Of a stretch of DNA of 32,000 nt, positions 4,271 through 31,601 are shown piece by piece; within the stretch, counting starts at the first letter, position 1; the number at the start of each line of letters is the position of its first letter. Location: assembly GCF_003010495.1 (NCBI RefSeq), contig NZ_CP027570.1, forward strand, positions 390,001 to 422,000, in the 5' to 3' direction. Under the pieces are notes generated by a model, which saw nothing but the letters and a program-made list of their open reading frames with translations, was not told the origin of the DNA and ran no database searches. Both the position numbers and the translations under genes were made by a program. Source of the stretch: Megasphaera elsdenii DSM 20460. GTDB taxonomy: Bacteria; Bacillota; Negativicutes; Veillonellales; Megasphaeraceae.

Positions 4271-4306
4271 AAAAAAGGCGCTGTCCCATGAAGACAGCGC
4301 CTTTTT
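4271..4306. terminator. Bidirectional intrinsic terminator after phoR (A6-GGCGCTGTC-ccatgaa-GACAGCGCC-T5)
   Basis: Perfect 9-bp GC-rich stem at 4277-4285/4293-4301, flanked by an A-run and a T-run. It separates phoPR from the pstS promoter. Confidence 0.8.
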
Positions 4307-4341
4307 GAGTTTGAAGTTGAAAGTTTGATGTTTGATGTATC
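4307..4341 (+). repeat. Five tandem degenerate heptamers (GAGTTTG AAGTTGA AAGTTTG ATGTTTG ATGTATC) abutting the terminator
   Basis: Read directly from the sequence. The 26-nt string at 4300-4325 is identical to 23237-23262, and a reverse-complement copy lies at 14231-14265. Confidence 0.8.
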
Positions 4342-4396
4342 GGACGGGTATGGGGCCCCTGACCGGAAAATCATCCCTACGGATGGCCCCTCCTCC

Positions 4397-6824: not shown

Positions 6825-6869
6825 ATTATAGCGCAAAACCGGCTAAAAACAGTGTAAAAAGAGGGTAAA
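6825..6869 (-). promoter_or_regulatory. phoPR promoter region: -10 TATAAT plus three Pho-box-like direct repeats
   Basis: The minus strand reads TTTACC-ctctt-TTTACA-ctgtt-TTTAGC (6869-6842, 11-bp period), then 11 nt, then TATAAT (6830-6825). This suggests autoregulation. Confidence 0.55.
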
Positions 6870-6873
6870 AAAA

Positions 6874-7045
6874 GGGCTTGTCGCACGACGACAAGCCCTT
6901 TAAAGTTGTTAGTGGCTAGCAGTTAGTTGTTAGCGGATGGCTTTAAATTTGAAGGTTTTCTCTGCAAACTACAAACTCTGTGCTACAAACTATAAAGTAA
7001 ACGGGGCCTCTCATGATGGCAGAAACCTTCGTGCGGCAGTGCCCC
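6874..7045. repeat. Composite intergenic element, copy A (hairpin 1, heptad array, inverted heptad array, hairpin 2)
   Basis: Hairpin 1 is GGGCTTGTCG-cacga-CGACAAGCCC (6874-6898) and is preceded by A7, giving a minus-strand terminator. Heptads AAGTTGT TAGTGGC TAGCAGT TAGTTGT TAGCGGA occupy 6903-6937. Inverted heptads CTGCAAA CTACAAA CTCTGTG CTACAAA CTATAAA occupy 6962-6996. Hairpin 2 is GGGGC...GCCCC (7003-7045), containing CATGATGGCAGAAACCTTCGTG. The whole element aligns with 10608-10771. Confidence 0.8.
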
Positions 7046-7047
7046 TT

Positions 7048-8559
7048 TTAGAAATCGAAGTCCTTGGCCTTGATCTTGACCTGCCATTCTTTATCGACCT
7101 GTTTATAGGTAATGGTCGCAATGAAGGAGTGGAGGTCGCGGACCCAGGTGTAGTTGCGGTCGGAAATGTGATCATCGTCGAGGTCCTGGGCCCAGGAGAA
7201 GATGACCGTATCCCGCGGTGTCAGGACGTAGCCGATGGACAGGCCGTGCTGACGGGGGTCATCGAGGGTATCGAAGCGATACGGCGTGTAGCCGCTGACG
7301 TTGTGTTTCTTATACCAGAAGCTGGTCCACAAGCGATCGTTGATGCCCTGGTTGAGGATGACGCCGGAATAAGGATCGCGGCGCTGAGCATCATCGGTAG
7401 AATACCAATCCTTGCGGTAGCCGGCGAAGAAGCGCACATTGGCACGCTGCCATAAGGGGATAGGCGTATGAGTGATTTCCGTGCGGAAGCCTTTATGGGT
7501 CCCCGTCTTGACGCCATCTTCGGCCCAGCGGCCCCAGTTGGCACTGGAATCGATGTAAATGCCGGTGTCGCCGAGATGGAGGCGCGGTGCAAAGTATTCC
7601 AGTTCCGGCCACTTCGTAGCCCAGATGTTATCGTCGTTATCGGTACTTTCCTCCTTGCTGTAGCCAAAGCGGAAGGACCCGATTTTGGTATCCTTCTGTA
7701 TCTGTGCCGCCGGCTTGAGGCCATTCTTGGAGTTCAAGGCATAGCTGGCATGGAATTTCAAGTCACCTGACTGATTAAGCGGTACATCAGCATACCCCCG
7801 GACGCCGATGCCGTCATCGCTGTTATACGTCGGCCGCGGCAGCAACGTAAAGATGTAATGCTTGGTTTTATTCTTGTTATCCAACCGGCCCTCGTAATGG
7901 CCATAGGTGAACAGGCGGACGTGCTTGAACCAGAGGGCCGTATTTTCAGCCGTGAACTTTTCCCCCGGATAGATGCGGATATCGTCACCGGTAATATAAT
8001 AGTCCGGCGTCTTGGCAACGGCATGGGGCGTCGTAATCAGGCCGTGCTTGACGTAGCCGATATTGTCGTACATTTCGGCATCGGTCCCGCGGATATAGGT
8101 CGTAGGACCCATGAAGCCTTCGACCTTATCCATGCTCATGCTGCCGTTCTGGCTGTTATAGGTCACATCCTGCCCGGTCAGGGCATTGGTCTCATTGACA
8201 TAGACCACAGGCCCTTTCGTATGGTAGACGCCGCTTTTCATATTGCCTTCGACATAGTTGGCATGGACTTCATCCATGCCCTGCTTGATGTCGACATTAC
8301 CCCGGCTCTTGACATAGCCGTCGGCATTACGGGCGAAAAAGGTATCGGCCGTCATATGGACGGGCTGCTGCGGCAGGACGACGTCTTGCGAAGCGGCGGC
8401 CTGGTCCAAATCGACAGGCAGGATTTTCTTTTCTGTCACGGGAACGGCCATGACCTTATCCGTATGAAGTTTAGCTGTATCAGCGGCACTGGCCGAAAGA
8501 GTCAGCGGCAGCAGGGCTGCGATCATCGCCGCTGTCCACGTTTTATTCATTCGCGTCAC
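7048..8559 (-). CDS. Outer-membrane protein, OstA/LptD-like (short form)
   Basis: 503 aa. It has a signal peptide (LTLSASA-AD) and an N-terminal OstA/LptA-like beta-jellyroll segment (GNVDIKQGMDEVHANYVEGN...VVYVNETNALTGQDVTY). The C-terminal half is rich in aromatic and alternating residues and ends in a terminal Phe (DFDF), typical of beta-barrel OMPs. Confidence 0.6.
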   Translation of the reverse strand: MTRMNKTWTAAMIAALLPLTLSASAADTAKLHTDKVMAVPVTEKKILPVDLDQAAASQDVVLPQQPVHMTADTFFARNADGYVKSRGNVDIKQGMDEVHANYVEGNMKSGVYHTKGPVVYVNETNALTGQDVTYNSQNGSMSMDKVEGFMGPTTYIRGTDAEMYDNIGYVKHGLITTPHAVAKTPDYYITGDDIRIYPGEKFTAENTALWFKHVRLFTYGHYEGRLDNKNKTKHYIFTLLPRPTYNSDDGIGVRGYADVPLNQSGDLKFHASYALNSKNGLKPAAQIQKDTKIGSFRFGYSKEESTDNDDNIWATKWPELEYFAPRLHLGDTGIYIDSSANWGRWAEDGVKTGTHKGFRTEITHTPIPLWQRANVRFFAGYRKDWYSTDDAQRRDPYSGVILNQGINDRLWTSFWYKKHNVSGYTPYRFDTLDDPRQHGLSIGYVLTPRDTVIFSWAQDLDDDHISDRNYTWVRDLHSFIATITYKQVDKEWQVKIKAKDFDF

Positions 8560-10034: not shown

Positions 10035-10586
10035 ATGATGAAAAAATTTGTATGCGGCATCTGCGGTTTTGTTTATGAAGGTACGGAAGCTCCGGAAAAG
10101 TGTCCTCAGTGCGGCGCTCCGAAAGAAAAATTCACGGAACTCGTCGCTGGCGTCAAAGAATACGCTGACGAACATCGCGTAGGCGTTGCTAAAGGCGTCG
10201 ACGAACGCATCCTTGAAGGCCTCCGCCTCAACTTCACTGGTGAATGTTCCGAAGTCGGCATGTACCTCGCTATGAGCCGTGTCGCTGACCGCCAGGGCTA
10301 TCCGGAAGTCGCAGAAGCTTACAAACGCATCGCTTTCGAAGAAGCTGAACACGCTGCTAAATTCGCTGAACTCCTCGGCGAAGTCGTTACCGACGACACC
10401 AAGACCAACCTCGAAATGCGTGCTGCTGCTGAACAGGGCGCTTGCGCAGGCAAGAAAGAAATCGCCACCCTCGCTAAACAGCTCAACCTCGACGCTATCC
10501 ATGACACGGTTCATGAAATGGCAAAAGACGAAGCTCGCCACGGCCGTGTATTCGATGGCCTCCTGGCTCGTTACTTCGCAAAATAA
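10035..10586 (+). CDS. rbr: Reverse rubrerythrin (N-terminal rubredoxin-like CxxC...CxxC domain plus C-terminal ferritin-like di-iron domain)
   Basis: 183 aa. The N-terminus is [27 protein letters not shown]. Di-iron ExxH motifs are EEAEHAAKF and DEARHGRVF. An AGGAGG RBS lies 5 nt upstream. Confidence 0.9.
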
Positions 10587-10607
10587 TCCGTTTAGGAATG
10601 CAAAAAA

Positions 10608-10771
10608 GGGGCTTGTCGCATGACGACAAGTCCCTTTTTGAGTATTAAGTTTTCAGTTTATAGTTTTTAGTGAAGGTTTTTAAATTTAAAGCTATCTTCT
10701 ACAAACGCCGTACTACAAACTATGAAGCAAAAGGGCCCTGCATGATGGCAAAAACCTTCGTGCGACAGCCC
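10608..10771. repeat. Composite intergenic element, copy B (between convergent rbr and the LysR gene)
   Basis: Hairpin 1 is GGGGCTTGTCG-catga-CGACAAGTCCC (10608-10634), flanked by A6 and T5, giving a bidirectional terminator. Heptads GAGTATT AAGTTTT CAGTTTA TAGTTTT TAGTGAA occupy 10640-10674. CTACAAA units occur at 10699 and 10713. Hairpin 2 is 10733-10771 and contains CATGATGGCAAAAACCTTCGTG. The element is collinear with 6874-7045. Confidence 0.8.
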
Positions 10772-14177: not shown

Positions 14178-14230
14178 GCCCTTCATGGATATCCAAAAGG
14201 GTGAGGCAATAACTTTTAAATTTTGTCCCA

Positions 14231-14265
14231 TCCACATCAAACTTTCAACTTCAAACTTCAAACTC
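14231..14265 (-). repeat. Heptad array, reverse-complement copy of the GAGTTTG/AAGTTGA module
   Basis: The minus strand reads GAGTTTG AAGTTTG AAGTTGA AAGTTTG ATGTGGA immediately after the terminator T-run. The order matches 4302-4341 and 23239-23264. Confidence 0.8.
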
Positions 14266-14322
14266 AAAAAAGAGGCTGTCGCATTATGCATTTTTTTGCT
14301 TAATGCGATAGCCTCTTTTTTA
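14266..14322. terminator. Bidirectional terminator between the convergent radical-SAM and TVP38 genes
   Basis: The 16-bp stem is AGAGGCTGTCGCATTA (14271-14286) paired with TAATGCGATAGCCTCT (14301-14316), with one G-T pair. It is flanked by an A-run and a T-run. The TVP38 stop codon sits in the T-run. Confidence 0.8.
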
Positions 14323-22515: not shown

Positions 22516-22977
22516 ATGGAATCTACTGTCTTTACGAATCTGCGCGGCTCTGAAGGAGCCCTGACCTTTAATTTTTTCTGTGAATCCTTGATTACCTCAC
22601 TCCATACCTTGACGCACGTCATGGAAGATGCCGGCATCGCCGTCCCGGATAACGTCGGCGACGTCGCCGACGCCCTGGGAGAAATGGGCAGCCACCTCAT
22701 GGAAGACTACCAGCGCGGCGAACTCGACCTGGGCCGTTTCAAAGATGAAATCCTCGATTTCTACGACCTCAACTTCGCCGTCAACGACGCCCTGGCTTCG
22801 GCCATCATGAGCCACGACGACCTGCAGTACTATTACTACGTCTATATGCAGGGCCTGTATATCTTCTTCCCCAACATGATGGAAGCCTTCAACGCCGACA
22901 TCGAAGACGAAAAAATCATCCCCTTCCTTGACGAACTGGCCAACGAATTTCGCCAGCTCGCCGGCAGCGGATCGTGA
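22516..22977 (+). CDS. Hypothetical small acidic, predicted-helical protein
   Basis: 153 aa with a strong AAGGAGG RBS 6 nt upstream of the ATG, and an extended -10 (TGATATAAT) about 25 nt further upstream. I recognise no motif. Confidence 0.6.
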   Translation: MESTVFTNLRGSEGALTFNFFCESLITSLHTLTHVMEDAGIAVPDNVGDVADALGEMGSHLMEDYQRGELDLGRFKDEILDFYDLNFAVNDALASAIMSHDDLQYYYYVYMQGLYIFFPNMMEAFNADIEDEKIIPFLDELANEFRQLAGSGS

Positions 22978-22984
22978 TGGCGCC

Positions 22985-23083
22985 CTGCGGCCTAGTGGCT
23001 CGTGGCTTCGGACTGCGGCCTAGTGGCTCGTGGCTTCGGACTGCGGCCTGGTGGCTCGTGGTTTCGGCCTGCGGCCTAGTGGC
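22985..23083 (+). repeat. Tandem 28-bp repeat, 3.5 copies (CTGCGGCCTAGTGGCTCGTGGCTTCGGA), equal to four CTnnGGn heptads per unit
   Basis: Copies at 22985-23012 and 23013-23040 are identical. Copy 23041-23068 has three substitutions. A partial copy lies at 23069-23083. The array starts 8 nt after the stop of the 153-aa gene. It shares the 15-mer TAGTGGCTCGTGGCT with 31420-31434. Confidence 0.9.
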
Positions 23084-23100: not shown

Positions 23101-23198
23101 CCGTAGGGGCCGTCCCAAAGGGCGGCCCGTTGTGGGAATCCCACCATCGGCAATCCGTAGGGGCGACCACGTGGGCGCCCGTTGCGGGAATCCCGCAT
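23101..23198 (+). repeat. Two tandem ~54-bp GC-rich modules (CCGTAGGGG + hairpin + CCCGTTG + hairpin)
   Basis: Module 1 hairpins are 23107-23128 (GGGCCGTCC-caaa-GGGCGGCCC) and 23132-23144 (GTGGG-aat-CCCAC). Module 2 hairpins are 23161-23180 (GGGCG...CGCCC) and 23184-23196 (GCGGG-aat-CCCGC). The second stem differs by a compensatory T:A to C:G change. Confidence 0.7.
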
Positions 23199-23208
23199 CT
23201 CGTTCCAT

Positions 23209-23243
23209 AAAAAGGGCTTGTCGCACGACGACAAGCCCTTTTT
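23209..23243. terminator. Bidirectional terminator (A5-GGGCTTGTCG-cacga-CGACAAGCCC-T5) shared by the 153-aa gene and uppP
   Basis: Perfect 10-bp stem at 23214-23223/23229-23238. The sequence is identical to the hairpin at 6874-6898. Confidence 0.8.
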
Positions 23244-23264
23244 GAGTTTGAAGTTGAAAGTTCA
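23244..23264 (+). repeat. Heptads GAGTTTG AAGTTGA AAGTTCA following the terminator
   Basis: Together with the T-run, this forms a 26-nt exact match to 4300-4325. Confidence 0.8.
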
Positions 23265-23278
23265 GCCCCTTATTTCGA

Positions 23279-23312
23279 CCTGCGGGACGCCCTCTGGGCG
23301 TCCCCTACGAAT
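23279..23312 (-). repeat. Inverted third copy of the CCGTAGGGG-hairpin module
   Basis: The minus strand reads TTCGTAGGGGACGCCC-aga-GGGCGTCCCGCAGG, with a perfect 9-bp stem at 23284-23292/23296-23304. It is in inverted orientation relative to the modules at 23101-23198, so the two bracket the terminator. Confidence 0.65.
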
Positions 23313-24901: not shown

Positions 24902-26158
24902 TCATTTCAAACCATACCGTTCCATCGGGTCCTGGATGTTCTTGATGGGCGTCGCCGTCAAGATGATGTCATCGACATAGGGCTCGTTGTGGCGCACGAC
25001 GATGACCAGGGATACGCCCTTCTGATACGGGCTGTCATAGTAATAGGCGTCGACGGATTTCTCCTTATCCGGTCCCCATTCGATGCGGTCCGGCCGGCCG
25101 TATAAAGCCAGGATTGTCGAGACGTGATAGCCCAAGGTCGCGCCGCGGCCCGTGTAAGCGTTATTCGTCAAGAGGAAGACTTTCTGCACAATGTTGCGCC
25201 GGTCTACTTCGACGCCGTAATCGCCATAGAGCCAGAAATTACTGTTGTTGCGCTTGACCAGGTTAGTCCACATGTTGTACTTGTTCGCTTCAAAAGGCTG
25301 GTTGAGGCCGAAGCCCATGAGGGTAAAGTCCCGTTCGCCCAATTTCATGCGGTCCGCCGCTTCTTCTCCCGTAATGTACGGCGGCCGTACCGGCATGAGG
25401 GCCACTCGTTCGATGCGGCGGTTGCCGATGGCAAAGACGTACATGACATCTTTCCGCGGGCTTTCATAGGTAAAGTAATAGACGTTGGCATCGGCGTCGC
25501 GCAGGACGGAATCGGGCAGGCCGTACTGGCGCAACAGCACTTCTGCCGGATATTTCAGGCGGACATCCCGGCCGATGAGGATGTTCGTCCCAGACGACAG
25601 GAACATCGATTCTGCCCCGGGAATGACGGCTTTCCGGTTCCCGGCACTGTAGCGCAGGCTGTCCGCCGTCTTGTTGCGGAAGACGAAGCGCATCTTCAAG
25701 TCCTTGTCGTTGTACTGCATGGTCGTATAATGGGTACTGCGCGAAAACTTCGTCGGCGGCCCGAAGATGCGTTTGACCTTGGCCGGGCTGTCGCCATGAT
25801 GGATACTGCCAATATAGAAATCGCTGGCCTGCAGCGGCGGGATAGACAGCGTATTCAGGGAGTCGAGGAGGACGCAGTCATCATCCGTCGGTACATGGGC
25901 CGTCTCTTTTTTACTATCTTTGCCGTCTTTATCGGTTTTATCCGCTTTTTTATCCACCTTGCCGTCTTTATCGCTTGTCCCGTATGCAGCGGCTTTGACA
26001 GCCTTAGGGGCTGTCTGGCTAGTCCCGGCCTTCTCAGCCGTAACAGCCGCAGCCCCGGCCAGGGCTTTCCCCGTTTTTTCCGCCGGAACTGCTCCCATAG
26101 CGGTTCCCCAGGCCAAAGACACAGCAAAGACCAGTGCAGCCATAGCTGTACGTTTCAT
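24902..26158 (-). CDS. Secreted hypothetical protein with a Lys/Asp-rich linker and repeated G...(V/L)...(F/Y)G-x-P modules
   Basis: 418 aa with a signal peptide (SLAWGTAMGA-VP) and the linker DKDGKVDKKADKTDKDGKDSKK. The modules are IGSIHHGDSPAKVKRIFGPP, IGRDVRLKYPAEVLLRQYGLP and LGYHVSTILALYGRP. A GAAGGAGGG RBS is present. Confidence 0.7.
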   Translation of the reverse strand: MKRTAMAALVFAVSLAWGTAMGAVPAEKTGKALAGAAAVTAEKAGTSQTAPKAVKAAAYGTSDKDGKVDKKADKTDKDGKDSKKETAHVPTDDDCVLLDSLNTLSIPPLQASDFYIGSIHHGDSPAKVKRIFGPPTKFSRSTHYTTMQYNDKDLKMRFVFRNKTADSLRYSAGNRKAVIPGAESMFLSSGTNILIGRDVRLKYPAEVLLRQYGLPDSVLRDADANVYYFTYESPRKDVMYVFAIGNRRIERVALMPVRPPYITGEEAADRMKLGERDFTLMGFGLNQPFEANKYNMWTNLVKRNNSNFWLYGDYGVEVDRRNIVQKVFLLTNNAYTGRGATLGYHVSTILALYGRPDRIEWGPDKEKSVDAYYYDSPYQKGVSLVIVVRHNEPYVDDIILTATPIKNIQDPMERYGLK

Positions 26159-26187
26159 GGCGTCCCTCCTTCGTAGGATTGAGAAAA

Positions 26188-26360
26188 CGGAGCTGTCCTA
26201 GGAAGACAGCTCCGTTTTACGTTGGTCGCAAGCCGTTCATCGTTTGTCGCAAGGGATCCAACAATATCAAGCCATCGCGATGAACGACGAACGACGAACG
26301 AAAAACTGTTAAGTCAAAGGAATCGTGCATGATGGCAGAAACCTTCATGGAACCGTCCTT
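26188..26360. repeat. Composite intergenic element, copy C (variant heptads)
   Basis: Hairpin 1 is CGGAGCTGTC-ctaggaa-GACAGCTCCG (26188-26214), flanked by A4 and T4. Heptads CGTTGGT CGCAAGC CGTTCAT CGTTTGT CGCAAGG occupy 26220-26254. Inverted heptads GAACGAC GAACGAC GAACGAA occupy 26282-26302. A 9-bp inverted repeat CGTTCATCG/CGATGAACG is present. Hairpin 2 (26317-26360) contains CATGATGGCAGAAACCTTCATG. Confidence 0.75.
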
Positions 26361-30321: not shown

Positions 30322-31290
30322 TTAGACGGGCCGGACATGAATATCCCCTGCCATGACGACTTCTGTACCGGCTGCCGTATCGACGAGGAGATTGCCGTTT
30401 TCATCGATATCCCGTGCCATGCCGGAAAAAGTCCGGTTCACGGAACTGACGGTCACTTCCTGCCCCAGCATGCACGACAAGGACCGCCATTCGGCCAATA
30501 CCTGGCTGAACCCCTGGCGGCAGACCGTATCGTAGAGCCGTTCGATTTCTGCCAGCAGCGTTTCCAGCAGGGCTAGCCGGCTGACACGGATGCCTTCCCG
30601 GGCAAAGCTGGTGACGATGGATTTCAAGTCTTCCGGCAAATCATCGGCCATGATGTCCGTGTTGACGCCGATGCCCATGATGATGTAATTGACCTTTTCA
30701 GCCGACCCGTTGAGTTCGGTCAGGATGCCGACCATCTTCCGCCCCTGGACCAGGATGTCATTGGGCCACTTGATGCCGCAGTCTGCCAGGCCGTGCCGGC
30801 GGATGGAGCGGGCTACGGCGACGGCAGCCAGCAAGGTCATCTTAGCCACTTCCATGGGAGAAATATCGGGCCGCAGGATCAAGGAAAACCAGACGCCCTT
30901 GGCATAGGGAGAGAGGAAGGTCCGATTGATGCGGCCGCGCCCGCCCGTCTGTTCTTCTGCCACGATGATCGTTCCTTCCGGCGCCCCCTGGTCAGCCAGT
31001 TTCTTGGCGACGTTATTCGTCGAATCGACCCGCTCCCGATAGACGACAGGGCGGCCGACGAACTTCGTCTGCAAACCATCAAGGATGGCCTTTTCCGACA
31101 AGAGTTCCGGAGCTTCCCGCAGACAATAGCCTTTCTTGGTATAGGACTCGATGACATAGCCCCGCTGCTTCAGCGCACGGATATGTTTCCATACGGCCGT
31201 CCGGGAAATACCGAGCTGGTCGGAAATCTGCTGCCCCGATACAAATTCATCCTTATGGTGTATCAAAAAATCGAGAATATCTTGTCTCAT
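30322..31290 (-). CDS. birA: Bifunctional biotin--[acetyl-CoA-carboxylase] ligase / repressor BirA (class II, with N-terminal HTH)
   Basis: The HTH is SGQQISDQLGISRTAVWKHIRALKQRGY, and the ligase motif is GGRGRINRTF with KWPND. The start is at the ATG at 31290 (MRQDIL). The track ORF adds 12 codons. Confidence 0.9.
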   Translation of the reverse strand: MRQDILDFLIHHKDEFVSGQQISDQLGISRTAVWKHIRALKQRGYVIESYTKKGYCLREAPELLSEKAILDGLQTKFVGRPVVYRERVDSTNNVAKKLADQGAPEGTIIVAEEQTGGRGRINRTFLSPYAKGVWFSLILRPDISPMEVAKMTLLAAVAVARSIRRHGLADCGIKWPNDILVQGRKMVGILTELNGSAEKVNYIIMGIGVNTDIMADDLPEDLKSIVTSFAREGIRVSRLALLETLLAEIERLYDTVCRQGFSQVLAEWRSLSCMLGQEVTVSSVNRTFSGMARDIDENGNLLVDTAAGTEVVMAGDIHVRPV

Positions 31291-31328
31291 CACAATCACC
31301 CCTGCCGCTGCCCCTGGCAGCCCCATTC

Positions 31329-31352
31329 AAAAAAAAGCGCCACCAACGGCGC
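31329..31352 (-). terminator. Short intrinsic terminator-like hairpin about 40 nt upstream of birA
   Basis: The minus strand reads GCGCC-gttggt-GGCGC followed by T8. It is a second terminator, about 250 nt downstream of the ftsH stop. Confidence 0.5.
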
Positions 31353-31419
31353 ACAATATGCCTATTCTATGTAAAAATTTTAACATAAACCATCCCCCTG
31401 TCAAGGGGAGGCTGGGAGG

Positions 31420-31482
31420 TAGTGGCTCGTGGCTAGCAGTTAGTAGTCAGCAGTCAGTGGCCTGCCAGCTAGTGGCCCGTAG
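31420..31482 (+). repeat. Nine consecutive degenerate heptads (TAGTGGC TCGTGGC TAGCAGT TAGTAGT CAGCAGT CAGTGGC CTGCCAG CTAGTGG CCCGTAG)
   Basis: Read directly. The first two units match the 28-bp tandem repeat at 22993-23007, and the TAGTGGC-TAGCAGT-TAG pattern matches 6910-6926. Confidence 0.8.
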
Positions 31483-31542: not shown

Positions 31543-31591
31543 TCCACTAACAACTTAAAAGGGTTTGTCGTCATGCGACAAACCCTTTTTT
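31543..31591 (-). terminator. ftsH terminator: conserved-family hairpin followed by AAGTTGT TAGTGGA heptads
   Basis: The minus strand reads A6-GGGTTTGTCG-catga-CGACAAACCC-TTTT-AAGTTGTTAGTGGATGG. It is the same hairpin as at 6874 and 23214, but with a compensatory C:G to T:A pair. The trailing AAGTTGTTAGTGG also matches 6903-6915. Confidence 0.8.
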
Positions 31592-31601
31592 CACTTGTTT
31601 C

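Follow-up and report, generated by a model that had tools for sequence, protein, structure and literature searches.

The BIMEs of E. coli are mosaics of REPs. REPINs consist of two inverted REP sequences that form a long hairpin and are mobilized by the RAYT transposase (Bertels & Rainey 2011, PMC3116915; PMC3337134). Here we describe a composite intergenic repeat in a 32,000-nucleotide stretch of DNA from Megasphaera elsdenii DSM 20460, the whole of which was analysed and is referred to below as the window. Other systems against which this repeat has to be set are the pneumococcal BOX element, composed of boxA, boxB repeated n times and boxC; the Correia elements of Neisseria and the ERIC/IRU elements of enterobacteria, which are palindromic, MITE-like repeats of 100–150 nt; and the cyanobacterial STRR sequences, long homogeneous heptanucleotide arrays in the Nostocales, for which our literature search on STRR heptanucleotides returned only fingerprinting uses. 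IS1397/ISKpn1 and class C group II introns, which have their own enzymes and measure 1–2 kb, insert into REP loops or directly after terminators.

We consider it likely that the Megasphaera element is a genus-specific, non-coding, mosaic palindromic intergenic repeat of the REPIN/BIME/BOX type, which is mobile and at the same time serves the host as an intrinsic terminator in both directions. Repeats of this general sort are familiar from other bacteria, and the present one is a further instance of them rather than a novel type of system; it adds a case from the Negativicutes, with an unusual grammar, to the few bacterial mosaic repeats (REP/BIME, BOX, Correia) that have been well dissected.

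Architecture of the composite element

The window contains three copies, A (6874–7045), B (10608–10771) and C (26188–26360), which align end to end in the same order with a mean column identity of 78%. The collinearity claimed for them in the earlier note is therefore real, and every string that it quoted lies where it had been placed. The 22-nt core that it had singled out in hairpin 2, CATGATGGCARAAACCTTCRTG, begins at 7012, 10741 and 26328, in each case on the plus strand, and these three occurrences in the window compare with no match in 100 dinucleotide shuffles.

Two GC-rich hairpins of a single sequence family lie in inverted orientation, giving terminal inverted repeats of ~20 nt, and the interior between them is a near-palindrome of ~100 nt in which GT-rich heptads, an AAATTT dyad centre and complementary AC-rich heptads follow one another. 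The hairpins share the pattern AAAA-GGnnYTGTCGCA...TGCGACARnnCC-TTTT. Hairpin 2 corresponds to hairpin 1 plus a 17-nt apical insert, CATGATGGCARAAACCT, that makes a small stem-loop of its own, and it is because of this insert that the core appears conserved. An nhmmer model of hairpin 2 matches its 3' half, TTCRTGCGACAGC, to simple hairpins of the hairpin-1 type, of which it covers the loop and the 3' half; hairpins 1 and 2 belong to the same palindrome family in opposite orientation, with pairing arms between them. The composite is, in other words, an inverted pair of half-elements, each made of a TGTC-family palindrome and an arm of 4–5 heptads; their joining at the AAATTT dyad produces both the inverted-repeat ends and the near-palindromic interior. 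The left end, AAAAGRGGCTGTCGCA, and the right end, TGCGACAGCCYCTTTT, are reverse complements of each other, forming terminal inverted repeats of about 16–20 nt, and the length of the composite, near 180 nt, is uniform across subfamilies.

In copy A, hairpin 1 (6874–6898, no strand assigned), a member of the TGTC..GACA hairpin family, is a 10-bp GC-rich palindrome between A7 (6867–6873) and T3; the left terminal inverted repeat is AAAAAAAGGGCTTGTCGCACGA. Five GT-rich heptads (GTTGTTA, GTGGCTA, GCAGTTA, GTTGTTA and GCGGATG; lag-7 identity 0.61) make up the left arm (6905–6940, plus strand), which pairs with the complementary AC-rich heptads (CTGCAAA, CTACAAA, CTCTGTG, CTACAAA and CTATAAA; lag-7 identity 0.52) of the right arm (6955–6997, plus strand). 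The dyad centre between them (6941–6954, no strand assigned) is CTTTAAATTTGAAG by alignment and direct reading, and its family consensus, CTTTAAATTTAAAG, is a perfect palindrome. Hairpin 2 with its T-run (7003–7049, plus strand; core 7012–7033) combines a hairpin-1-type stem with the 17-nt insert and adjoins the TAA stop (7048–7050) of the LptD_N-like gene; the right terminal inverted repeat is TCGTGCGGCAGTGCCCCTTTT. Copy B begins with a hairpin 1 (10608–10634, no strand assigned) that is the predicted terminator of the rubrerythrin gene and is kept in every strain, even in those without the rest of the element. Its arms (10640–10676 and 10692–10727) enclose the centre (10677–10691) and are followed by hairpin 2 (10733–10771; core 10741–10762, plus strand). 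In copy C, hairpin 1 (26188–26214, no strand assigned) lies upstream of the next minus-strand gene, whose start codon is only ~25 nt away; arms of CGT/ACG-type heptads (26220–26255 and 26274–26309) surround the centre, and hairpin 2 (26319–26360; core 26328–26349, plus strand) adjoins the lysS stop codon.

The heptad arms described in the earlier note hold up across the family. Over 60 distinct copies, lag-7 identity in the arms is 0.443 against 0.265 ± 0.005 in shuffles, TRF reports periods of 7, 14 and 28, and the two arms pair in 81% of cells, compared with 35–41% in most slid controls and 60% in one control. At the in-phase heptad position, C-type arms have C-G where A/B-type arms have A-U, the outer stems of both hairpins show compensatory changes, and heptad number changes in steps of 7. 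Heptad arrays beside shared-stem hairpins are GT-rich on the 3' side of either strand. A reading of the heptads as three-frame stop-codon arrays was rejected, one frame being open in several arms and stops being few in C-type arms; so was a small peptide encoded by the ATGATGGCA... core, whose variable positions are non-synonymous (E/K, V/M) and whose frame enters unrelated flanks.

As expected of a mosaic, halves of the composite are also found alone. The three copies of the earlier inventory are all genuine, but four half-elements in the window, each consisting of hairpin 1 and heptads, had been overlooked. One (4272–4338, plus strand) has a hairpin-1-type palindrome, a T-run and GTTTGAA-type heptads, and its arm sequence fills site A in other strains. 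Another (14234–14319, minus strand, inverted) runs from hairpin, T-run and GTTTGAA heptads to the centre, without a right arm or hairpin 2, and the matching site in WILCCON 0056 holds a full C-type composite. At 23209–23262 (plus strand), a hairpin 100% identical to hairpin 1 of copy A is followed by heptads, and at 31544–31594 (minus strand, inverted) a hairpin, a T-run and GTTGTTAGTGG show 90% complementarity, across 51 nt, with the left end of copy A.

Family distribution and strain polymorphism

The exact core has 108 copies in 102 stretches, all from genomes of the M. elsdenii clade except for two MAG contigs, which are probably mis-binned. Strain WILCCON 0056 accounts for 66 of them, and a large number of its contigs break off within the element, so the family breaks short-read assemblies. 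Its 25 complete C-type copies have a median pairwise identity of 99.4%, and 16 of them do not differ at any of 164 nt. C-type arms are single-copy in the other genomes sampled, where they are confined to the lysS site; they have gone from one to about 38 copies in one lineage, a recent burst of the family in one genome. The family is thereby well suited to studying how a repeat can burst although no transposase is visible. The earlier note had named a lack of further copies, together with an A/B similarity at shuffle level, as grounds for giving up its reading; many more copies exist, and its preference for common descent over independent terminators is upheld by the 108 exact-core copies, their restriction to Megasphaera and the near-identical burst.

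Between strains, copies are gained, lost or replaced as whole cassettes at fixed sites. The family provides convenient markers for telling apart strains of M. elsdenii, which lives in the rumen and gut and is used as a probiotic. At site B, a segment of ~138 nt (10640–10771) is present or absent between otherwise near-identical flanks, the site being filled in L103, L106–L109 and L111 and empty in L104, L105 and L112. The edges of this indel are a direct repeat of 15–16 nt, CGACA(A)GCCCCTTTTT, that includes half a hairpin, and L103 carries 14 extra nucleotides, equal to two heptads. At site A, identical flanks enclose an unrelated cassette in 8 of the 10 places compared. L024 has hairpin 2 alone where its ortholog, L098, has the full composite. 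Presence and absence at site B and the swapped cassette at site A agree with the suggestion in the earlier note of a non-autonomous MITE/REP-like element or a mobile terminator cassette. Site C is orthologous in five genomes at an identity of at least 95%, with substitutions only in loops and one 21-nt deletion, and is as conserved as the neighbouring coding sequence; this high conservation, together with the conserved apical insert, could reflect a specific function outside the repeat model.

The flanks are A-runs of 4–7 and T-runs of 3–9 and contain no unambiguous target-site duplication. Because every boundary falls within an A/T run or a repeated hairpin half, insertion is indistinguishable from deletion between direct repeats. 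At the loci examined, there is no transposase-like ORF between copies and no longer element with the same ends, and no duplication of fixed length can be defined, in keeping with the earlier note, which had seen neither a transposase nor a duplication. ORFs with repeats on both sides, considered as candidate autonomous partners, are ordinary metabolic genes, and the additional 1.2 kb that WILCCON 0056 carries at site B proved to be a gene for a membrane protein rather than an IS. We found no RAYT, judged by a Y..NP..AG-type motif, among ORFs of 80 aa or more across roughly 0.8 Mb of DNA, a fraction of each genome. Plasmid and phage searches returned no match to the element and no parent IS with its ends, and literature searches for MITE or REP repeats in Megasphaera returned nothing. 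Rfam gave no match in the whole window at gathering thresholds, and permissive scans of copies A and C reached at best 22 bits, against thresholds of 41–229, with generic hairpin noise only. The other ground on which the earlier note would have given up its reading, a match to an already described element, thus failed as well, with nothing matching in Rfam, plasmids, phages or the literature searched.

These observations bear directly on whether the composite is a classical MITE, i.e., an internally deleted IS with terminal inverted repeats, served by a DDE transposase encoded elsewhere and producing a fixed-length target-site duplication. The end inverted repeats are those of such an element, and the uniform ~180-nt length, the copy-number burst and the insertion polymorphism would all suit it. 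However, the flanks vary in length as A-runs and T-runs do, no transposase adjoins any copy at the loci examined, the ends are halves of hairpins that are abundant on their own, and halves and modules recombine freely, unlike those of a unitary MITE. A classical MITE consequently seems improbable to us. In a mosaic palindromic repeat, copies would plausibly spread or be exchanged when the hairpin halves, which are directly repeated, and their A/T runs recombine or undergo gene conversion; alternatively, some hairpin-directed transposase might act in trans.

Terminator form, gene context and remaining readings

For hairpin 1 of copy A, the folding energy is −21.9 kcal/mol on the plus strand and −22.6 kcal/mol on the minus strand (z about −7), and the minus-strand stem runs into U7, the classical form of an intrinsic terminator. 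Hairpin 1 of copy B (−24.4 kcal/mol, plus strand) is followed by U5 on the plus and U6 on the minus strand, and that of copy C (−24.1 kcal/mol, minus strand) by U4. Hairpin 1 has, in sequence form, the GC-rich stem-loop and U-run of an intrinsic terminator. Hairpin 2 of copy A folds at −21 kcal/mol on the plus strand; only on this strand is hairpin 2 followed by a U-run, which measures 4–7 in copies A and B and is lacking in C. A simple promoter/terminator scan of the three copies returned no sigma-70-like promoter and missed hairpin 1 of copy A; as this scanner is too crude for hairpins, we take terminator form from the folds and from direct reading. On this basis, hairpin 1, with its A-run, stem and T-run, is probably a bidirectional intrinsic terminator, and a second terminator, against plus-strand read-through, is probably formed by hairpin 2 and its U-run. 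Like REP/BIME elements, the complete structure is probably a barrier to 3' exonucleases and an insulator between adjacent genes, and at dozens of loci the family may affect read-through and the stability of mRNAs.

The three window copies lie in unrelated gene contexts, as had been proposed: A between a gene with a weak LptD_N match and an OmpR-type response regulator, B between rubrerythrin and LysR genes, and C between a class II lysyl-type tRNA synthetase and a protein without a Pfam match. In all three, hairpin 2 ends 2–11 nt before the stop codon of a minus-strand gene. The earlier note had given this as a constant rule, which stands for the window but not for the family, where the core lies within 21 nt of a converging gene in only about 20 of 104 copies. 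More broadly, copies favour gene 3' ends and shun divergent promoter regions: for 77 of 104 copies, the neighbour on the 3' side is a converging gene, and divergent intergenic regions hold only 5 of 67. In burst copies, hairpin 1 directly follows stop codons. At site C, no promoter space is left between hairpin 1 and the next gene, so the element must pass or supply some transcription there.

Hairpin 1 is not private to the composite but a member of a much larger family of terminator-type palindromes. The TGTC..GACA stem is common to 132 of 273 terminator-like hairpins, even far from any composite, which means that about half of the terminator-like hairpins in these genomes have one stem sequence; T-runs accompany 110 and A-runs 105 of 129 TGTC hairpins. 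A bolder reading, possible but doubtful, is that most intrinsic terminators of the M. elsdenii clade come from one self-propagating palindrome family. New copies would then arise by recombination with, or insertion into, resident terminator hairpins, a process that could be called terminator conversion, and the period-7 arms might be register-shifting homology or footprints left by a single-strand nuclease that is directed to hairpins and recognizes the 17-nt apical insert. If this were true, the selfish element and the transcription stop signals of its host would be one thing.

It is also conceivable, though we think it unlikely, that the copies encode a multi-copy structured sRNA or cis-regulatory RNA, in which a plus-strand transcript would run through hairpin 1 and the heptad stem to hairpin 2, whose U-run would be its own terminator and whose apical loop would be a binding site. 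The plus-strand folds of the copies are better than those of shuffles (z −2.6 to −3.4), but copy C folds better on the minus strand. The plus-strand-only U-run of hairpin 2, the compensatory stem changes and the loop-restricted changes at site C, which is as conserved as the adjoining coding sequence, would be expected of such an RNA. The arm mismatches (G:T 47 versus A:C 20) seem to favour a transcript as well, yet this excess is unusable for assigning a strand because G:T pairs were already scored as pairs when the structure was chosen. An RNA gene is further opposed by the lack of a sigma-70-like promoter at any of the three copies, by Rfam matches nowhere near threshold and by the occurrence of copies in every orientation relative to neighbouring genes, while a genome with 16 identical copies, variable presence between strains and the swapping of cassettes are what mobile DNA shows.

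The period of the arms raises the question of a protein-binding platform, since HutP binds UAG-N4 repeats and TRAP binds (G/U)AG repeats. Here, an NAG (UAG) triplet every 7 nt would be recognized by a ring-shaped RNA-binding protein controlling termination at the adjacent hairpin. In A/B-type copies, UAG-N4 does recur four or five times along the GT-rich strand of each arm, and the arrays always adjoin terminator hairpins; at the same phase, however, C-type arms have UCG and GTTTGAA-type arms AAG or AUG. What is conserved is period 7 and no particular word, and the arrays are self-complementary palindromes at dozens of unrelated loci, which makes this platform very improbable. That independent terminators are alike by chance or convergence, or through a DNA-uptake-sequence-like motif as in Neisseria and Haemophilus, is barely credible: Neisseria terminators do contain paired uptake sequences and the TGTC..GACA stem does recur far from composites, but the collinear 170-nt similarity, which includes loops and spacers, and the absence of the core from the shuffles rule out chance, and the hairpin motif, unlike uptake sequences, is largely intergenic and not enriched in coding sequence (7 of the 16 GCGACAR sites lie in non-coding DNA, which makes up 9% of the window, and none of the top 9-mers of the window is related to the motif).

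Comparison with known repeat systems

A mobile, mosaic palindromic repeat that also terminates transcription thus remains our preferred reading, and its likeness to REPs, REPINs and BIMEs is extensive. Like them, it is non-coding and extragenic, lies at gene 3' ends and consists of imperfect GC-rich palindromes in inverted pairs around a spacer. It is likewise mosaic, modular and lineage-specific, with tens to hundreds of copies, within-genome bursts, and both singlets and doublets. In contrast to REPINs, the Megasphaera palindromes are flanked by A-runs and T-runs and have no 5' GTAG, which occurs only inside some heptads; their spacer is a 100-nt heptad palindrome, and no RAYT was found in the DNA examined. 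A separate GTAG-type REP family co-exists in the same Megasphaera genomes.

With BOX, the element shares a modular build, complementary ends, an internal module of variable number, stable hairpins, an intergenic location and the lack of a known transposase. However, the internal unit of BOX is 45 nt rather than 7 nt, its ends are not terminator hairpins, and there is no sequence similarity. Correia and ERIC/IRU elements are comparable in size, terminal inverted repeats, the potential of the whole element to form a hairpin, presence or absence among strains and effects on neighbouring transcripts, whereas the TA duplication, IHF site and promoter-like ends of Correia are not seen here, nor is any sequence similarity. 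STRR sequences are likewise tandem intergenic heptamers with several alternative 7-nt words per genome, but the Megasphaera arrays are short (4–5 units), degenerate, arranged in complementary inverted pairs and attached to terminator hairpins. Finally, the composite can be read as having inserted at a terminator palindrome already in place, either within its loop or next to its T-run, in the manner of IS1397/ISKpn1 and class C introns, from which it differs in being a 180-nt element without an ORF or intron domains.

Architecture of the composite element

The three segments described in the earlier note, copies A (6874-7045), B (10608-10771) and C (26188-26360), have exactly the sequence reported there, and in a MAFFT alignment all three run collinearly from hairpin 1 to hairpin 2 with a mean column identity of 78%. 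The 22-nt core within hairpin 2, CATGATGGCARAAACCTTCRTG, proposed to be conserved, occurs three times in the window, on the plus strand every time, and not once in 100 dinucleotide-preserving shuffles. Using a repeat finder, we located four half-elements (hairpin 1 plus heptads) missed by the earlier note, at 4272-4338 and 23209-23262 and, inverted, at 14234-14319 and 31544-31594; the unit at 23209 has a hairpin that matches hairpin 1 of copy A at every position (100%). A listing of the intergenic regions places a hairpin-1-plus-heptad unit in nearly every one in the window that has a gene 3' end.

Across about 100 copies, reverse-complementing the left end, AAAAGRGGCTGTCGCA, gives the right end, TGCGACAGCCYCTTTT; the element ends are terminal inverted repeats. 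Between them lie 4-5 GT-rich heptads, a dyad centre whose consensus, CTTTAAATTTAAAG, is a perfect palindrome, and 4-5 AC-rich heptads complementary to the first arm. With hairpins at both ends and complementary arms around the dyad centre, the composite, ~180 nt long across all subfamilies, is therefore an inverted dimer of a "hairpin plus heptad arm" unit. Hairpin 2, GGGGCCTCG-[CATGATGGCARAAACCT]-TCGTGCGACAGCCCC, is a hairpin-1-type palindrome with a 17-nt apical insert, since the 3' half of its nhmmer profile (TTCRTGCGACAGCnCC) aligns to the loop and 3' half of simple hairpins (e.g., GGCGCTGTC-TTCGTGCGACAGCGCC) and since the two hairpins can be set side by side (on the minus strand, copy A has GGGCTTGTCG-TCGTGCGACAAGCCC as its hairpin 1). 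The insert folds into a small stem-loop of its own. The 7-nt periodicity is highly significant: lag-7 identity within the arms is 0.443 versus 0.265 +/- 0.005 in shuffles, with harmonics at 14 and 21, and TRF reports periods of 7, 14 and 28. Four arm dialects were counted among the copies: TAG-type (copy A), AGTTT-type (copy B), CGT-type (copy C) and GTTTGAA-type (half-elements and one IMG/VR contig).

Structural conservation, a point the earlier note had raised for checking, is evident in an RNAalifold analysis of 15 diverse copies, in which both hairpins are recovered and their outer stems carry compensatory changes: two pairs of hairpin 1 switch from G-C to C-G in 5 of the 15 sequences, and hairpin 2 shows G-C to A-U and C-G to U-A changes. 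Solitary or variant copies of hairpin 2 have quite different outer stems that remain complementary (e.g., GCCCTG/CAGGGC; GGGACCGTCG/CGACGGTCCC; GGACTGTTT.../...AAACAGTCC). Between the arms, 81% of cells pair with the register set by hand, compared with 35-41% in slid controls and 60% in one of them, and the observed pairing/covariation score was reached by 0 of 500 shuffles. Alternative registers, offset by multiples of 7, also pair. In-phase heptad positions in both arms are A-U in A/B-type and C-G in C-type copies; this switch is a concerted change across all heptads, and these pairs are the informative ones. Arm mismatches of the G:T kind outnumber A:C by 47 to 20, an excess biased by the pair-selection rule. 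The better-folding strand is plus for A and B and minus for C, and the pairing and covariation data fit RNA and single-stranded or cruciform DNA alike.

Distribution and exchange between strains

Two 3.5-kb pieces of M. elsdenii DSM 20460 (HE576794.1) are exact matches to the window, which places it at roughly 124.85-156.85 kb there. We scanned 185,579 species, each represented by a single genome, for the exact core and found 108 copies in 102 stretches, confined to elsdenii-group Megasphaera bar two MAG contigs labelled Mollicutes and Holdemanella. The former (L092, "Mollicutes bacterium") carries the Megasphaera element and is 99-100% identical to the M. intestinihominis locus L090; the latter (L100, "Holdemanella sp.") likewise carries the element. 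Given this near-identity of one of the pair, both are probably mis-binned Megasphaera contigs in public MAGs. Copy numbers reach 66 in Megasphaera sp. WILCCON 0056, 18 in MAG HGUT-00612, 9 each in MAG HGUT-02555 and M. intestinihominis, and 4 in M. elsdenii MSK.21.52. Many WILCCON 0056 contigs end 30-40 nt outside the core with constant polarity, the signature of an assembly-breaking repeat. Searches of 72,556 plasmids and 50,697 phage records gave no similarity, no Rfam family matched, and we found no literature on MITE or REP sequences in Megasphaera. A copy with a GTTTGAA-type arm lies directly 3' of a gene on one IMG/VR contig.

WILCCON 0056 carries 25 complete C-type copies, spread over different loci, whose median pairwise identity is 99.4%; 16 of them are identical over 164 nt. 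Among the other genomes sampled, C-type arms have a single occurrence, the lysS site. That site (site C) is orthologous in five genomes with at least 95% identity, substitutions being limited to two loops, that of hairpin 1 and the central one; in one copy three heptads (21 nt) are deleted. At site B, an identical rubrerythrin is encoded on ten contigs, seven of them filled as in the window (one filled allele is longer by 14 nt, two heptads), whereas the other three (L104, L105, L112), joined by the more divergent L110, hold only hairpin 1, T7 and the same downstream DNA. The filled/empty difference of ~138 nt is flanked by the direct repeat CGACA(A)GCCCCTTTTT. At site A, an identical response regulator is found in ten places, whose flanks are identical outside the stretch between the A-run and the T-run; two carry the cassette of the window and eight an unrelated one, with a different hairpin 1, GTTTGAA heptads identical to window 4306-4340 and a variant hairpin 2, CATGAGGACATATACCCCCATG. 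Modules also vary singly: the orthologs L024 and L098 have hairpin 2 alone versus the full composite, L012/L051 and L037/window 14178-14319 have hairpin 1 in common with different downstream modules, and L095 has hairpin 1 and the left arm of copy A with the right half missing. Taken together, the burst, presence/absence, cassette swaps and module mixing suggest that the element is mobile or exchangeable DNA. All junctions fall in A-runs, T-runs or repeated hairpin halves, and for this reason no fixed target-site duplication is callable and insertion is inseparable from deletion between direct repeats. No transposase was found adjoining the copies.

At the stop codon of the rubrerythrin gene (orthologous to window ~10578-10590), 8 bp are duplicated in tandem, CAAAATAA, in the metagenome-derived strains of L104 and L112, which lack element B. 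In WILCCON 0056 (L095, 6502-7587), an extra gene for a 361-aa multi-pass membrane protein lies between the rubrerythrin and LysR genes; the rubrerythrin terminator differs from that of the window, and the composite is absent.

Gene ends and terminator form

With the core as reference for orientation, 77 of 104 copies have a convergent gene on their 3' side, and among the 67 copies with both neighbours known the arrangement is convergent in 26, co-directional in 36 (23 + 13) and divergent in only 5; the family thus favours gene ends and avoids promoter-only regions. That hairpin 2 always abuts a stop codon is true of the three window copies but of only ~20 of 104 family-wide. In the WILCCON 0056 burst copies, hairpin 1 directly follows the stop codon of the upstream gene.

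Hairpin 1, a strong palindrome (-22 to -24 kcal/mol, z about -7), lies between an A-run and a T-run and thus has the layout of a bidirectional intrinsic terminator. Hairpin 2 folds at about -21 kcal/mol and has a U-run of 4-7 in A and B, on the plus strand only, and none in C. A stretch total of 752 kb contains 136 TGTC..GACA hairpins, the stem family of hairpin 1; a T-run accompanies 110, and an A-run 105, of the 129 whose flanks are complete. Period 7 is present in 35-43% of their flanks against a 2% background, and these flanks are GT-rich 3' of the hairpin and AC-rich 5' of it. Of 273 terminator-like hairpins that lie over 1 kb away from every core (L001-L102 and the window), 132 have the YTGTC...GACAR stem, and a single sequence family seems to dominate the terminators of this clade. 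REP/BIME sequences are known for terminator, 3'-end protection and insulation roles, and by analogy we infer that these elements may act in all three ways. At site C the ribosome-binding site of the next gene follows hairpin 1 too closely to leave room for a promoter, and termination at this site must therefore be incomplete. Only ~25 nt separate hairpin 1 of copy C from the downstream start codon of that gene (hairpin and gap, 26159-26214; gene, 24902-26158), which encodes a 418-aa protein with no Pfam match and is probably co-transcribed with lysS through element C.

Neighbouring repeats and known relatives

A second, unrelated repeat family has the classical REP form, GTAG followed by a GC-rich palindrome (e.g., GTAGGGGCGACCACGTGGGCGCCC). 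Its units lie at 23103-23131, 23157-23184, 23279-23308 (inverted) and 4340-4396 in the window and number about 93 in the 720 kb of Megasphaera loci fetched. Many of them adjoin heptad elements directly, and a unit in L077 continues in register into CTACAAA heptads, to which it is fused. This family implies a RAYT-type gene somewhere in these genomes, and the fetched DNA contains no RAYT motif. A 28-nt (4 x 7) tandem repeat, CTGCGGCCTAGTGGCTCGTGGCTTCGGA, with 3.5 copies at 94% identity, occupies 22985-23083, beginning just past the 3' end of the plus-strand gene 22516-22977, and a similar heptad tract (TAGTGGC/TCGTGGC/TAGCAGT) lies at 31420-31480. The palindromic module CCCCTTATAGGGGAGCTGGCCGCCGAAGGCGGTCTGAGAGGTT recurs in L082, L087, L099 and L123 (8500-8560; compare window 31385-31420), replacing or adjoining heptad arms in several loci. 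On the minus strand at 31327-31352, immediately upstream of the start codon of gene 30322-31326, a terminator-like hairpin, GCGCCGTTGGTGGCGC, not of the TGTC type, is followed by T8 and may be an attenuator or leader structure.

Several readings of the motif were set aside. A HutP/TRAP-like "UAG every 7 nt" pattern fits the A/B-type arms but fails for the C-type and GTTTGAA-type arms. The motif does not behave like a DNA uptake sequence, and the ATG-containing core is under no coding constraint.

Among known systems, the closest in architecture and function include REPINs and BIMEs, mosaic inverted REP pairs at gene ends (PMC3116915, PMC3337134), although the Megasphaera element, unlike a REPIN, lacks GTAG, and RAYT was not found in the fetched DNA. 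Palindromic MITEs of the Correia/ERIC type are also among the closest, but the Megasphaera element differs from a MITE in having no definable target duplication; no parent IS was found in the fetched loci, plasmids or phages. It resembles pneumococcal BOX in its complementary ends and internal unit of variable number, and cyanobacterial STRR in its heptamers. Because it matches each of these systems at most incompletely, we class it as a Megasphaera-specific mobile mosaic repeat of terminator palindromes and heptad-periodic arms; overall, our data support the interpretation of the earlier note, common descent as a MITE/REP-like element or mobile terminator cassette. The repeat class is familiar; what is unusual is its grammar, namely one stem in about half of the terminator-like hairpins, strand-symmetric heptad flanks and concerted word changes, together with a transposase-less burst, and both can be followed directly.
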